Origin: Escherichia coli 042
Lineage (GTDB): Bacteria; Pseudomonadota; Gammaproteobacteria; Enterobacterales; Enterobacteriaceae
Assembly: GCF_000027125.1 (NCBI RefSeq)
Contig: NC_017626.1
Length of the DNA: 64,000 bases
Strand: one strand, 5' to 3'
In this document: in pieces, positions 12,001 to 18,000 of the stretch
Numbering within the stretch: the first letter of the stretch is position 1
How the letters are laid out: every line of letters starts with the position of its first letter
Program-made: the position numbers

Positions 12001-15000
12001 TACTGAGATCTGGCGTGCTATAGGCCAGTACACAGACGATCCCGAATGGTAGTGCGCCAAACAGTACCCATGGACGAAATTTACCCCAGCGAGAGCGCGT
12101 TCGATCGGCCAACAACCCCATGCAAGGATCGGAAATCGCATCCAGTGCACGAGCGACCAAAAACATGGTTCCGACAAATCCGGCAGGAATGCCAAAAATA
12201 TCGGTATAAAAGAACATCATATATAACATTACGTTATCGAAAATAATGTGGCTGGCGGCGTCTCCCATGCCATAACCAATTTTCTCTTTAACGGACAACA
12301 CTTCACTCTTCATCTGCTTTTCCTTGATGCTATAGGGGTGCTGAGACCGATAACGCATTTTGTAAACCATCCCTGTGAGAGCGAATATTCCGATATCTGG
12401 TTATTAATTTATGATTCTTGTTTTATGTGATCGTGGTAGCGTAAATTACGCTCATATATCATTGTAAAGTATGGGTTTTATATGAACTATAATGCTTTCG
12501 TGATAATACGCTGCGTGTATTAGGCGGAAAAAACTGATCTGGGGGATGTAGAAACTCAAGGAAGTAGCTATAATGCGCCCCGCCTCCATGTAGCAATCGA
12601 GGCGCGGAAGATCGTCGTCTCCGGTGAGGCGGCTGGACTTCAAATCCAGTTGGGGCCGCCAGCGGTCCCGGGCAGGTTCGACTCCTGTGATCTTCCGCCA
12701 AACTTCATCCAGCCAGTTCCGAGATGATCCATAAAACCATTTATATTCAATATGATGAATAATCATCTTATCCGTAACAGTCCGAGATCGTCTCCCTAAA
12801 TCCGCGAAAAATATGTATAGTAATGTGTATAGATTTTTTATAAGTAGTTTTCAGTTATACACATGGCTCTCACCGATATACAGATCAAACGTGCAAAACC
12901 ACAAGACAAGCCATACACATTGAACGATGGACAAGGTCTGTCATTGCTTATCAATCCCGATGGCTCGAAAGGCTGGCGTTTCCGTTTCCGGTTTGCAGGG
13001 AAAGCGCGGTTAATGTCATTTGGCAGCTACGATTTAGTAAGCCTCGCAGAAGCACGTGAGAAGCGTGATATCGCCCGTAAGCAGGTTGCTAATGGCATTG
13101 ACCCGGTAGAGGAACGCAAAGCTTTAAGACTCGCCCAAAAGCTATCAACAGAAAATTCTTTCGAAGCAATATGTCGAGAATGGCATACCAACAAAGCTGA
13201 CCGCTGGACTGTGGCCTATCGAGAAGAAATCATTAAGACATTCGAGCAAGATGTCTTCCCGTTCATTGGTAAACGTCCTATCAGTGAAATCAAACCATTA
13301 GAACTGCTTGAAGTATTACGACGAATCGAAAAACGTGGAGCACTAGAGAAAACACGCAAGGTGCGTCAAAGATGCGGTGAGGTTTATCGCTATGCAATCA
13401 TAACTGGCCGTGCTGAGTACAATCCTGCACCTGATTTAGCTATCGCTCTGGCCGTTCCCAAGCAAAAACACCATCCATTTTTATCCGCTGAAGAGTTGCC
13501 TCATTTTATTCGAGATCTTGAAGCGTATACCGGTAGCATCATCACCAAAAATGCTACGAAGATAGTCATGCTGACTGGTGTAAGAACGCAGGAGATGCGC
13601 TTTGCTACGTGGGAAGAAGTAGACCTCGAAAAAGGTATATGGGAGATACCAGCGGAACGTATGAAAATGCGTAGACCTCACATTGTTCCTTTATCTACTC
13701 AGGTAGTTGACCTTTTCAAACAGCTCAAACCTATTACCGGCCATTACCCTTACATCTTTATTGGTAGGAATAACCGTAATAAACCAATCTCAAAAGAAAG
13801 TGTATCACAAGTAATTGAGTCACTCGGTTACAAAGGACGTGCTACCGGTCACGGTTTTAGACATACAATGTCGACAATTCTACATGAGCAGGGGTTTGAT
13901 AGTGCATGGATTGAGATGCAATTAGCACATGTGGACAAAAACAGTATTCGTGGGACATATAACCATGCCCAGTATCTGGAAGGCAGAAAAAAAATGATGA
14001 ATTGGTATGCTAATCATATCTTTAATATAGGGGTTCCTAAATGACAAACAATGTTCTTACCATACATAATCGCTTGTTTATCAACCAGTTACATTTCTAT
14101 AGAATGAATTTCACTTATATCAACTACAACGGTTGACATTTAAAAAATATTAACATTTAAAAAAAGTAGGAGCTACGCAATGTGCATAGAATTAAAAAAG
14201 TTTTCAATTAAAAAATTATATGGCTATAAAGACATACATCTAATTTTCAATAAAAAAAGTACAATTATCATTGCAGAGAATGGTGCTGGCAAAACTACGC
14301 TAATCAATGCACTTAAATCCACCTTAAAAGGTGAGTTTGATGAACTAAGAAAAATCAAGTGTGAGAGTATTGATATAGAGTTTTCTGATCAAAAATTCAC
14401 ATTGAATATTGCAGCATTAAGTTATTCTGATTTTCTGAATAATGCATTGTTACCAACTAGATTTCGTGAAATCACGAAAAATCTTAATAATACACAAATT
14501 GAAGATGCATTAGCATTTCTAAGACATAAACCAGTGAAGGATGCCCGTCAGACTACATGGTACCGAAAAATGTATCATACAACTCCTTATAATTACATTG
14601 ATATCGACTCGACATTATCCGAAGTCAAAATCTTATTAAAAAATCATTATTCATCTCTTGAAAAACCTGATCTTTTCTCTGTAAATAAACCAGAACTGTC
14701 TAAAACCATCCATGCAATAGAGGAAATAAAACAGAAAACAAAAAATATTGAAATAATATATTTACCTACATACCGACGCATTGAAAAATCTACACTTCGT
14801 GATAAGTTTACTAGAGATGAAAATGAAAAATTCGTCTTTAGAGATGGAGAGATCGTCAGTATTCGCGAGGAAAGTGAAACTAACTTAAATATAGAGTTTG
14901 GTTTGTTTGATGTTGAATCAAAATTAAAAGATTTAAGCGCATCCATTGAGCGCCGTTCAAGTTTAGGCTATAGAAAGTTAAGTGCAACCATAATTGAAGA

Positions 15001-18000
15001 TATGATGACAGGAAAAGCCAGTGCCCCAACAAAACCTAAACTGCCATCTGTATCTGAATTATCAAGATTTTTAGGTAGGGTAGTTAATAAAGATAAGGAA
15101 AGTAATAAGAGGATAATTCAAGAAGTTACAAGCATCATGGAAAATAAAGATATGCTCGCATCAAATAATATGCTGAGTTATTTCCTATCTAAATTAAAAG
15201 CTGTCATCGACTCAACTAAAGAGCTCGAACTAAAAATAGAGAGCTTTGTTACCATTTGCAATAAATATCTACAGTTATCAGATGATTCAAAATCGCTAAA
15301 TTTTGACATTGAAACATTACAAGTTATTGTAAAAGACTTATTCACAAATAACCCCATTGAATTAGAAGATCTTTCCTCAGGCGAAAAACAAATAATTTCT
15401 TTGATGGCTCATATGTATCTTGACCATACTAAGAAAAAAATTGTTTTAATAGATGAACCAGAATTATCGCTCTCACTTGAATGGCAAGAGCATGTCCTCG
15501 TAGATATAGTGAATAGCCCTTCAGTTACTCAAATGCTTGCAATAACACATTCACCTTTTGTTTTTAATAATGAACTGAAATCCCAAGTAACATCTTTGAA
15601 AGTTATCAAGCATTGAGGATTAGAATGGACGATCTTCGTTTTAATATGATGATGGATGCGATCAAAAAACCGTGTGTTTTGAGATTAAAGCTAATTAAAA
15701 ACAAAAAGGCAGGAAAGGCTTTATTTGTTTTCGAAGGTGACGATGACTATGATTTCTATCATCATGCTATAACTATTTCCGGTTTCGATAAAGAATATAC
15801 TCATATAAATGGGGCAGGAAAGAACCAATCTATTTCCCTTTATGAAGAATTATATAAAGAAAATAGTGATAATTTACAAAACACATATTTTTTTGTTGAT
15901 CAAGATTACTCTACCTTCTGTTACTCTAATAAAAACATAGTAACACTTCCATTTTATGCCATTGAGAACCCATTATCAGATGATAGAGTAATAAAACATT
16001 TTATAATCTCAACATTTAAACTTGACGAAAGGCATAGCAAAATTATAAATAGCGTTATGGGCTTTTATTCTAAGGCAAAAGCTAGCTTTTATTCTGAGAT
16101 AAAAAACATATCTATACAGCTGTATATGTCCAGAATACTTGGACTCGCGATAGAGTTTCCTTCAAACCATGAATTATTCGAAAAAATTGAAAAGGAAAAA
16201 GTCACCCTTAAAATAAATGAAATACCGGCAATTACTGATCGGTTAAAAAAAATAACAAAAGACGAAGAGAATTACTACAAAGTAATTTCCACTCTAGATA
16301 ATGACAAACTGACTAGAGGAAAGTATGTTTACTATTTTGTTAGCGAGTGGTTAATCCGCATAAAAAAATACATCAATTCAAGGATAGATAGTATAAATAA
16401 TGAAAGCGCCTTAAACTCTACCTCTTCAGTAGTGAATGAAAAAAAATTATCCAAACAACAATATGATCATACTGACCTGTCAATCGCAAGGCTTGTTCCT
16501 GCATGTATGAAAGTAAAAGAATTGGATGCTTTCTTAAAAAGGATTAATTAATAATAAAACACTGCGGGCGGTGCTTTCCCCGCCTCGCCCGCCCGCTTTG
16601 CCGGGCGGTTTTAATGCAGTTGCGCTGACACGCTCAGGCCGCGTCGGGCGCGGCGTGAGCTGCAGAAAATGAGTCAGGAAAACGCATGCAAAGCCATGCA
16701 CCTTATCGATGCATGGCTTTTTTCAGTAAAAACAGGCGGATTTTTCGGGGAGTTTTACACAGACTGACGTGATGCCAGTTCTGCACTTTTACGCGAAAAA
16801 ATCATGTTCTGCGCAGGGGTGAATTTTTCACGGCTGTCATCCACCGAAGCCGCGTCAGGCCTGAATCCGATGGTCGTTAAAATGTCGCTATCCTGTGCGG
16901 AATAATTAATTTTTTCCCCCTTCGCAAGCCAGGACAGAAGGGCTTCACGCAGGACATCTGTGGCACGCTGTATGGCACAGTTTCGGGCAATGGCCGTCAG
17001 CTCACTGTAGCCCATCAGCTCCGGTGCCAGTGCGGCCGCCAGTGCTGTGCCGTGCTGCTGCATAAAATCATTCAGCCGCTCGCGGATGCTGATGTGCTGA
17101 ACGGCTTCATGCGAACGAACATAACGACCGGCGGCCTGATTCACCTGCCATTTTCTGACTTCGATAATATTGCGTAATTCGTCCAGGCGACTGACGTTTC
17201 TGCCTTCCCCGGACAGAAGCCGCAGATATTCCTGTTCGGCTGCCGCCAGTTCATTTTTGCGCTGAAGCCATGCCGCTTTGTTATTCTGGCAGACCTCAAA
17301 AGCCTGCTGTAATGACATTGTGGTCACACCCCGTCCCCTGATTAATGGTTGAATGGTGAGCTGTAACAGCCTTTAACTTTTCGGACAACAGCCGGTGCTG
17401 TGCTTACCGGTGCTGGTTTTTCCTCCGTGACCGGAGAACGAATCACGGCACAAATTGACTCATGCGTTTTAAATGTCGCCGAACAGTAAATATTCTGGCA
17501 CTGCAGATAACTTTCTTTGACATTGTCACTCACATACCGGCTGGTGCGGGTATGCGCTGAATGACGACAGAAAGGGCAGCGCATCATGACAGCAGTCCTC
17601 TGGCCTTAAGCTCTGCTCCCTGCTGGTCTATTTTGTCCTGCCACACCTTGCGCTGTGCCGGTGTGCCTGCCACCTCATAATCCATGTGCGGGAGTGTTGC
17701 CGCTGACAGTCCGGTCAGCCGGAGAACCGGCTCGCCGGTGAGGCTGATTTGCATCTGTTTTATTTTCTGTTCCAGCGATGATTTCACCTGCTGCATGACA
17801 GCCTTTTCCGGCGCGACGTAGCCCTGATGGCCGGTGGTGTTGGCGAGCGGATTTTCCTGTACCAGGATGCTCAGATGCATTGCCCGGACAAGCGCCTCAC
17901 AGGTTTCATTCAGGGCGTGTTCCAGCTCATGCTCTGCATACAGACTCAGCAGGTGATGATGTGCCTTCCGGTAGGCGGTGGCCGTGCTGTCACACGCCCC

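Follow-up and report, generated by a model that had tools for sequence, protein, structure and literature searches.

The ariA/ariB cassette of a P4-like satellite in Escherichia coli 042 and its very probable assignment to the PARIS anti-phage systems

The cassette and its satellite

The stretch of DNA analysed here (the window, 64,000 nucleotides of the Escherichia coli 042 contig NC_017626.1) carries two adjacent genes, ariA and ariB, the products of which are an ABC/SMC-type ATPase and a DUF4435/Toprim protein, respectively (Table 1). The length of AriB is counted from the ATG at 15625 (308 aa), the mechanical ORF list using instead the TTG at 15613 (312 aa), and the RefSeq annotation of E. 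coli VR50 presents the same 478-aa and 308-aa genes. The ariA stop codon (15614–15616) is separated from the ariB ATG by 8 nt and the GAGGA ribosome-binding site of ariB spans that stop codon, meaning that the two genes are tightly coupled. Both occur together also in Aeromonas and are likewise paired in a relative sharing 38–50% identity, and identical or nearly identical copies of the cassette are present in several E. coli lineages.

The cassette is carried as cargo by a P4-like satellite, in its integrase–cos hotspot, the satellite being inserted at selC (selenocysteine tRNA gene). It lies between a P4-type integrase and the cos/psu end, and the element further presents delta, sid, alpha, the C4 RNA and att repeats at a tRNA gene, with attL and attR delimiting a satellite of about 11.08 kb. 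The ariB stop codon is followed after 20 nt by the 19-mer GGCGAGGCGGGGAAAGCAC, which we take to be the P2/P4 cohesive-end (cos) site. The GC content of the cassette is 30.9%, as compared with 53.3% in the remaining satellite. The original prediction, made from the bare sequence, of an AT-rich pair of ORFs encoding an ABC ATPase and a DUF4435/Toprim protein between int and cos/psu was thus confirmed in its coordinates, motifs, base composition and placement.

Table 1. Features of the satellite and its cassette (positions in the window)
Feature	Position	Strand	Description or basis
attL	12680..12702	+	23-bp direct repeat at the 3' end of tRNA-Sec
Integrase gene	12863..14044	+	P4-type tyrosine integrase, left border of the hotspot; ORF and annotation
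PARIS-1 cloned stretch	13952..16876	+	Bounded by the cloning-primer sites of pFR84 ("PARIS-1", E. coli O42); primer matches
int–ariA intergenic region	14045..14179	+	Weak promoter-like sites and ariA ribosome-binding site AGGAG
ariA	14180..15616	+	478-aa ABC/SMC-type ATPase; ORF call
ariB	15625..16551	+	308-aa DUF4435/Toprim protein from ATG; acidic residues E37, D41, D92, D94, E114
Presumed P2/P4 cos 19-mer	16571..16589	-	Right border of the hotspot; exact match, 0 expected by chance
Terminator-like hairpin and T-run	16589-16608		Beyond cos
psu	16755..17327	-	Polarity suppression protein; first P4 core gene past the hotspot
psu/delta/sid block	16755-18384	-	
C4 immunity RNA	19385-19472		
alpha	20923-23256		
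attR	23733-23755		Partner 23-bp repeat

Assignment of the pair to PARIS

AriA keeps the catalytic motifs of ABC ATPases, namely GAGKTT (residues 35–40, with the Walker A lysine K38), the signature LSSGEKQ (398–404), VLIDEPE (422–428, with the Walker B residues D425/E426) and the H-loop THSP (456–459). In Pfam it matches AAA_15 (57.7 bits, 2e-15) and AAA_21 (46.2 bits, 8e-12), with NCBIfam returning sub-threshold P-loop matches only. AriB carries the FEGDDD motif at residues 36–41 and matches Pfam DUF4435 (62.4 bits, 7e-17) and no model of NCBIfam. Its acidic residues E37, D41, D92, D94 and E114 vary little or not at all across 26 homologues, and the motifs that hold them follow the order EGxxD, DxD/E, xEN, the same as in the AriB of E. 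coli B185.

The rule by which PARIS systems are detected with MacSyFinder (Rousset et al. 2022, PMC9122126) asks for adjacent genes scoring at least 32 bits for AAA_15 or at least 27 bits for AAA_21, plus at least 27 bits for DUF4435; the cassette, with its genes 8 nt apart, passes it with the three scores given above. In PADLOC, the dedicated AriA and AriB profiles are the best defence-system matches of the two proteins (PDLC04164, 1.4e-32, for AriA; PDLC02983, 1.5e-15, for AriB, this being the sole match of the second protein). Like the Pfam matches, these lie far outside chance expectation. Among PDB sequences the closest to AriA is the AriA of 8ux9/8v45 (1.6e-13), and with AriB as phmmer query no PDB sequence at all was matched at E <= 1. 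The AlphaFold2 model of AriB (pLDDT 90.6) was also compared with the PDB by Foldseek, the only matches below 1e-3 being the chains 8ux9_A (3.8e-7) and 8v46_D (1.1e-5), aligned over about 325 columns with a full-length TM score of 0.49–0.51. The original prediction had proposed a PARIS-type AriA/AriB pair in the int–psu hotspot and a search with profile models as its check; this search was run and AAA_15/AAA_21, DUF4435, AriA and AriB were all matched, in agreement with the PDB sequence comparison and the fold of AriB.

Moreover, and decisively, the sequence coincides with that of a published clone. The 3' part of the pFR84 forward primer and a 399-nt insert prefix match the window exactly from position 13952, and the 3' part of the reverse primer matches in reverse complement at 16857–16876. 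AriB is identical to PARIS-1 protein 2 over 308/308 residues, and AriA to PARIS-1 protein 1 over the 399/399 residues compared, the last 79 resting on the RefSeq accession and the primer match. The window AriA is identical to VR50 WP_000334847, an accession listed in Table S1 of PMC9122126 as "AAA_15/AAA_21 + DUF4435" (system no. 10, labelled PARIS), with an adjacent column giving 110, read here as the count of occurrences in P4 hotspots; the AriB allele of VR50 carries Q85K relative to the window. PARIS-1, present in plasmids pFR84 and pFD237, showed broad anti-phage activity when expressed from Ptet with aTc, and no protection from its native promoter in MG1655, the pFR84 insert containing the int–ariA intergenic region (Rousset et al. 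2022, PMC9122126).

Taken together, the available data indicate that the cassette very probably encodes a PARIS anti-phage system, its sequence being the one already described under the name PARIS-1 (E. coli O42). The suggestion that the pair could be an uncharacterised variant does not hold, since the paper that defined PARIS (PMC9122126, Tables S1, S2A) already lists this same sequence and reports its cloning and its activity against phages from an inducible promoter. The case illustrates that a genuine defence system within a satellite hotspot can be spotted by reading raw sequence.

Possible mode of action and alternative readings

A likely mechanism for the cassette can be transferred from the very distantly related system of E. 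coli B185 (PARIS-2), which has been mechanistically studied (PMC11464382, PMC10802264, PMC12409363; PDB 8ux9, 8v45–8v49). In such a model, AriA would oligomerise and keep the Toprim nuclease AriB inactive until AriA is engaged by a phage protein, a step that depends on ATP. AriB would then be set free, dimerise and cleave host tRNA, with translation coming to a halt and the infected cell yielding no phage, that is, abortive infection. By the same analogy AriA is likely the sensor and sequestering subunit, and AriB the nuclease effector. The triggering by Ocr, the cleavage of tRNA-Lys(UUU) and related tRNAs and the need for both genes have been shown only for B185, and for PARIS-1 the assembly (AriA6:AriB3), the triggering protein (Ocr or another) and the RNA cleaved can only be inferred from it. 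"O42" and "PARIS-1" are not mentioned in Burman 2024, Deep 2024 or the 2025 AriB paper, and in the literature searched they appear only in Rousset 2022.

Other ATPase/nuclease systems have to be weighed against PARIS. In an OLD- or Gabija-like system, the ATPase-coupled Toprim nuclease would nick or degrade DNA, not tRNA. PADLOC GajA models do match the N-terminal P-loop region of AriA (about 1e-10), the AriB model weakly and non-significantly resembles Burkholderia OLD in the Toprim region at its C terminus (E about 0.7), and PARIS is itself classed as class 4 of OLD-like systems. However, the AriA and AriB models outscore those of GajA by far, AriB chains alone give significant fold matches to the second protein, the ATPase and Toprim parts are here encoded by separate genes, and no UvrD-type GajB helicase adjoins them or lies between int and cos, so that the cassette does not fall into Gabija or classes 1–2 of OLD. 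As to the cutting of DNA, P2 Old is now reported to cleave tRNA (PMC12445682), and the OLD/Gabija reading as a whole appears very unlikely. The prospects are poorer still for a Septu-like pair of a PtuA-type ATPase with a nuclease partner: many PADLOC PtuA models match AriA (best 1.8e-17) and PtuA structures are among its PDB sequence matches (3e-7), but the matches to PtuA are partial, covering the P-loop or signature region, and the NCBIfam PtuA model reaches 44 bits where its curated cut-off is 500. The partner, moreover, is a DUF4435/Toprim protein devoid of any HNH match and not the HNH nuclease PtuB, and this identity of the second gene effectively refutes Septu. An AbiE-type toxin–antitoxin reading was also considered and rejected.

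A different kind of objection, which we regard as improbable, is that the native cassette stays silent or functions chiefly as a toxin–antitoxin addiction module stabilising the satellite, with no real protection of the host from phages. DNA of 31% GC is in E. coli a typical target of H-NS, and the base composition of the cassette would fit such targeting. The promoter-like sites near the start side of ariA (TTGACA at 14134–14139; ATGACA-18-CATAAT at 14041–14070) are weak, and a scan upstream of the gene found sites in numbers no higher than in shuffled sequence; for this reason, although compatible with silence, the scan explains nothing about the missing activity of the native promoter. That missing activity in the published clone points in the same direction, as does the description of B185 PARIS as a type II toxin–antitoxin pair by Deep et al. 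On the other hand, the cassette is intact and has its identical or near-identical copies in several E. coli lineages, Table S1 of PMC9122126 appears to give 110 occurrences in P4 hotspots, most of the cargo tested from this hotspot is defensive, and PARIS-1 protects once expressed. Deletion of either B185 gene, in addition, was non-toxic (Rousset et al., PMC9122126). A PARIS defence system remains the preferred reading of the cassette.

Comparison with known systems

Between the cassette and the published PARIS-1 no difference was detected in the parts compared, the sequence and the P4 int–cos hotspot being the same. The OLD family (P2 Old, Gabija GajA) likewise combines an ABC ATPase with a Toprim nuclease in anti-phage function and is found as hotspot cargo in both P2 and P4. 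Its members, however, are fused single polypeptides, with GajA requiring the GajB helicase, whereas the cassette of the window encodes two proteins; and, while the ATPase is part of the nuclease in the OLD family, that of the cassette would act, by analogy with B185, as a sequestering sensor.

B185 PARIS has the same two-gene architecture in the same hotspot, with proteins of 464/308 aa as compared with 478/308 aa in the window. The two AriA proteins share about 27–32% identity, confined to the two ATPase lobes, and K39 (Walker A) and E393 (Walker B) of B185 AriA are both required for defence; the ABC ATPase motifs are common to both proteins, the window AriA having K38 and E426. Conservation between the AriB proteins is seen in the fold (TM about 0.5, full length; 13–15% identity in the fold alignment): a BLASTP comparison of the two proteins showed nothing significant (best E = 1.4), and hhalign of the 26-sequence AriB profile with B185 AriB returned only a 13-column fragment around xEN (E = 0.6). 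Five Toprim acidic residues are nevertheless common to both (E26, D30, D88, E90 and E122 in B185; E37, D41, D92, D94 and E114 in the window), a pairing made by motif, with hhalign aligning only the E114/E122 segment. The sequestration of AriB by the AriA hexamer of B185 involves contacts of AriB R28/R31 with AriA D401/E404. This acidic pair after Walker B is kept in the window AriA as E434/E437 in LEWQE, but in the motif alignment the two arginines are replaced by D39 and Y42, so that the AriA–AriB interface probably differs.

The lack of pairwise AriB similarity, the replacement of these arginines and a defence profile described as "different but overlapping" with respect to B185 (PMC9122126) raise the possibility, advanced here tentatively and as the less probable case, that the PARIS-1 clade senses another trigger, holds AriB through a rewired interface and cuts other RNAs than B185. 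Eleven PARIS clades have been published, and trigger sensing reportedly involves pore residues of AriA that are poorly conserved across PARIS clades. If PARIS-1 did diverge in this way, the cassette would fall outside the published Ocr/tRNA-Lys mechanism. The lack of activity from its native promoter might also be due to control exerted by the satellite or its helper phage. As PARIS-1 is an experimentally active clade, setting its trigger and its tRNA preference beside those of B185 would show how general the PARIS mechanism is.

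The cassette and its satellite element

Both open reading frames of the original prediction are present at the positions it gave, and every motif quoted for their products is found in AriA or AriB. The two genes, ariA (ABC ATPase) and ariB (DUF4435/Toprim), are co-directional, with a GC content of 30.9% in the cassette versus 53.3% in the remainder of the element. The mechanical ORF of ariB starts at TTG 15613 (312 aa), while the 308-aa product from the ATG is the protein annotated by RefSeq in the comparison genome E. coli VR50.

The surrounding element is a P4-like satellite of 11.08 kb lying between 23-bp direct repeats, and its immunity region is represented by three Rfam matches. 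Given the positions of int and of the 19-mer that follows the ariB stop, which we take to be the P2/P4 cos, the cargo occupies the int-cos hotspot exactly. A GC-rich hairpin followed by a T-run (16589-16608) abuts the minus-strand 19-mer, and could end ariAB transcription at the packaging site. Immediately past attR, a RhuM pseudogene remnant is annotated in VR50.

Features of the ariAB cassette and of the satellite (window positions, or residues for protein motifs)
Feature	Position	Strand	Remark
attL	12680-12702		23-bp direct repeat GACTCCTGTGATCTTCCGCCAAA, 3' end of tRNA-Sec
int	12863-14044		bounds the hotspot on the left
ariA	14180-15616	+	ORF, 478 aa
AriA GAGKTT	residues 35-40
AriA LSSGEKQ	residues 398-404
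AriA VLIDEPE	residues 422-428
AriA THSP	residues 456-459
ariB	15625-16551	+	ATG at 15625, GAGGA before ATG; 308 aa
AriB FEGDDD	residues 36-41
cos 19-mer (presumed)	16571-16589	-	20 nt past ariB stop
psu, delta, sid	between 16755 and 18384	-
c4-a1b1	19196-19248		Rfam match, P4 immunity region
isrK	19209-19286		Rfam match, P4 immunity region
C4 antisense RNA	19385-19472		Rfam match, P4 immunity region
alpha primase	20923-23256
attR	23733-23755		second copy of GACTCCTGTGATCTTCCGCCAAA, after alpha primase gene

Family assignment and identity with PARIS-1

The profile searches proposed with the original prediction returned all the anticipated families, both in Pfam (AAA_15/AAA_21 and DUF4435) and in PADLOC (AriA and AriB). 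AriA matched AAA_15 over nearly its full length (57.7 bits) and AAA_21 (46.2 bits), and AriB matched DUF4435 (62.4 bits). These scores identify the cassette as PARIS under the rule of Rousset et al., which calls for adjacent genes with AAA_15 >= 32 or AAA_21 >= 27, plus DUF4435 >= 27. In PADLOC, an AriA model was the top match of the first protein (1.4e-32) and the AriB model the sole match of the second (1.5e-15), with the PtuA, GajA and MAD3 models matching only portions of the ATPase. A Gabija/OLD-like system was rejected because the ATPase and Toprim are in separate genes and a helicase is absent, and Septu because no HNH nuclease is encoded by the partner gene.

The best PDB sequence matches of AriA were the AriA chains of the PARIS structures 8ux9 and 8v45-8v49 (1.6e-13), with PtuA behind (3e-7). 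The same search of the PDB gave no match for AriB, and its structure was therefore predicted from an alignment of 26 homologous sequences (pLDDT 90.6, pTM 0.87). In a Foldseek comparison with the PDB, this model gave E-values under 1e-3 only with AriB chains from the two PARIS cryo-EM structures (8ux9_A, 3.8e-7; 8v46_D, 1.1e-5), aligned over the full length with a TM of ~0.5 and 13-15% identity.

The cassette is in fact a published system. Table S2A of Rousset et al. 2022 (PMC9122126) describes plasmid pFR84 as "PARIS-1, P4, E. coli O42, GCA_014462355". Window positions 13952-14350 match exactly 399 nt of its insert, and the reverse complement of the 3' part of the pFR84 reverse primer is found at 16857-16876. 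AriB is identical to pFR84 protein 2 (308/308), as is AriA to protein 1 over the 399 residues compared. The full-length AriA equals VR50 WP_000334847, which together with WP_000342408 appears in Table S1 as "AAA_15/AAA_21 + DUF4435", system no. 10, labelled PARIS; the adjacent-column entry, 110, was read as its number of occurrences (PMC9122126). Within 14000-16750 the sole nucleotide difference from VR50 is at 15877, and AriB residue 85 is Q in the window and in published PARIS-1 and K in VR50. From this identity with a tested system it follows that the PARIS classification, also backed by the profile rule, PADLOC and the AriB fold, was right, and that the reservation about an uncharacterised variant can be dropped. 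The finding is already known.

Under Ptet, PARIS-1 conferred defence against a broad set of phages; its activity profile overlaps that of the E. coli B185 system but is not the same. Under its native promoter it gave no protection in MG1655 (PMC9122126). The latter result makes it possible that the cassette is silent in situ or serves only in addiction; against this, it is active when expressed and recurs in the hotspot.

Distribution of the gene pair and other insertions

Among complete genomes of E. coli (5,426), the cassette occurs at >= 99.6% identity in five, and the AriB cluster is found on 662 contigs. Adjacent ariA-ariB relatives are present in Aeromonas hydrophila (L004 4544-6942; AriA 67%, AriB 60% identical), with a metallo-beta-lactamase-fold gene on one side and an amidase gene on the other, and on a metagenome contig (L006 4560-6927; 50% and 38%), adjoining an autotransporter gene. 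No P4 genes were found among the genes called within ~6 kb either side of these copies, both in chromosomal contexts outside satellites. The AriA and AriB genes travel together and, given these contexts, pass jointly from one kind of hotspot to another.

Elsewhere in the window, a 19-kb stretch (27933-46893) is missing from VR50 between yicS and nepI. It is annotated in other E. coli as an island with eilA (HilA-like regulator), a SipB/SipD-type type III translocon and the air/EaeX inverse-autotransporter adhesin, the closest complete E. coli genome being just 93.6% identical across this stretch. About 0.8 kb adjoining nepI (48171-49012) also has no VR50 counterpart. A 3.3-kb insertion relative to VR50 between uhpA and ilvN (57925-61236) carries two similar-looking minus-strand ORFs (58028-59464, 478 aa; 59678-60985, 435 aa), neither with an NCBIfam match. 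The istR small RNA (63552-63681) of the tisB/istR toxin-antitoxin locus is ordinary core-genome content.

Comparison with the B185 system

In the mechanistically studied B185 PARIS, a homohexamer of AriA holds as many as three monomers of AriB in an inactive state. Binding of T7 Ocr to AriA depends on ATP, and AriB is then freed and dimerises. AriB, a two-metal Toprim RNase, cuts tRNA-Lys(UUU) and related tRNAs, halting translation, and phage T5 evades the system via its own tRNA (PMC11464382, PMC10802264, PMC12409363).

Judged by sequence, PARIS-1 and B185 PARIS are very distant. The AriA alignment is confined to the two ATPase lobes (27-32% identity), the AriB proteins have no significant similarity by BLASTP or hhalign, and motif alignment places D39 and Y42 at the AriA-contacting R28 and R31 of B185 AriB. 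According to Burman et al., the 11 PARIS clades show little conservation of the AriA pore residues that have been linked to sensing of the trigger. A literature search found no later paper studying PARIS-1. Given this distance, the changed contacts and the poorly conserved pore, the assembly, trigger and RNA target proposed for PARIS-1 count as inferences from B185.

PARIS-1 most likely works by the B185 scheme, with AriA sequestering AriB until a trigger leads to its release and to RNA cleavage. The catalytic equipment for such a scheme is intact. AriA keeps K38, E426, the signature motif and the H-loop, and shares the acidic pair after Walker B (E434/E437, corresponding to B185 D401/E404). 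In AriB, residues E37, D41, D92, D94 and E114, invariant or nearly so in the 26-sequence alignment, follow the same motif order as E26, D30, D88, E90 and E122 of B185 AriB.
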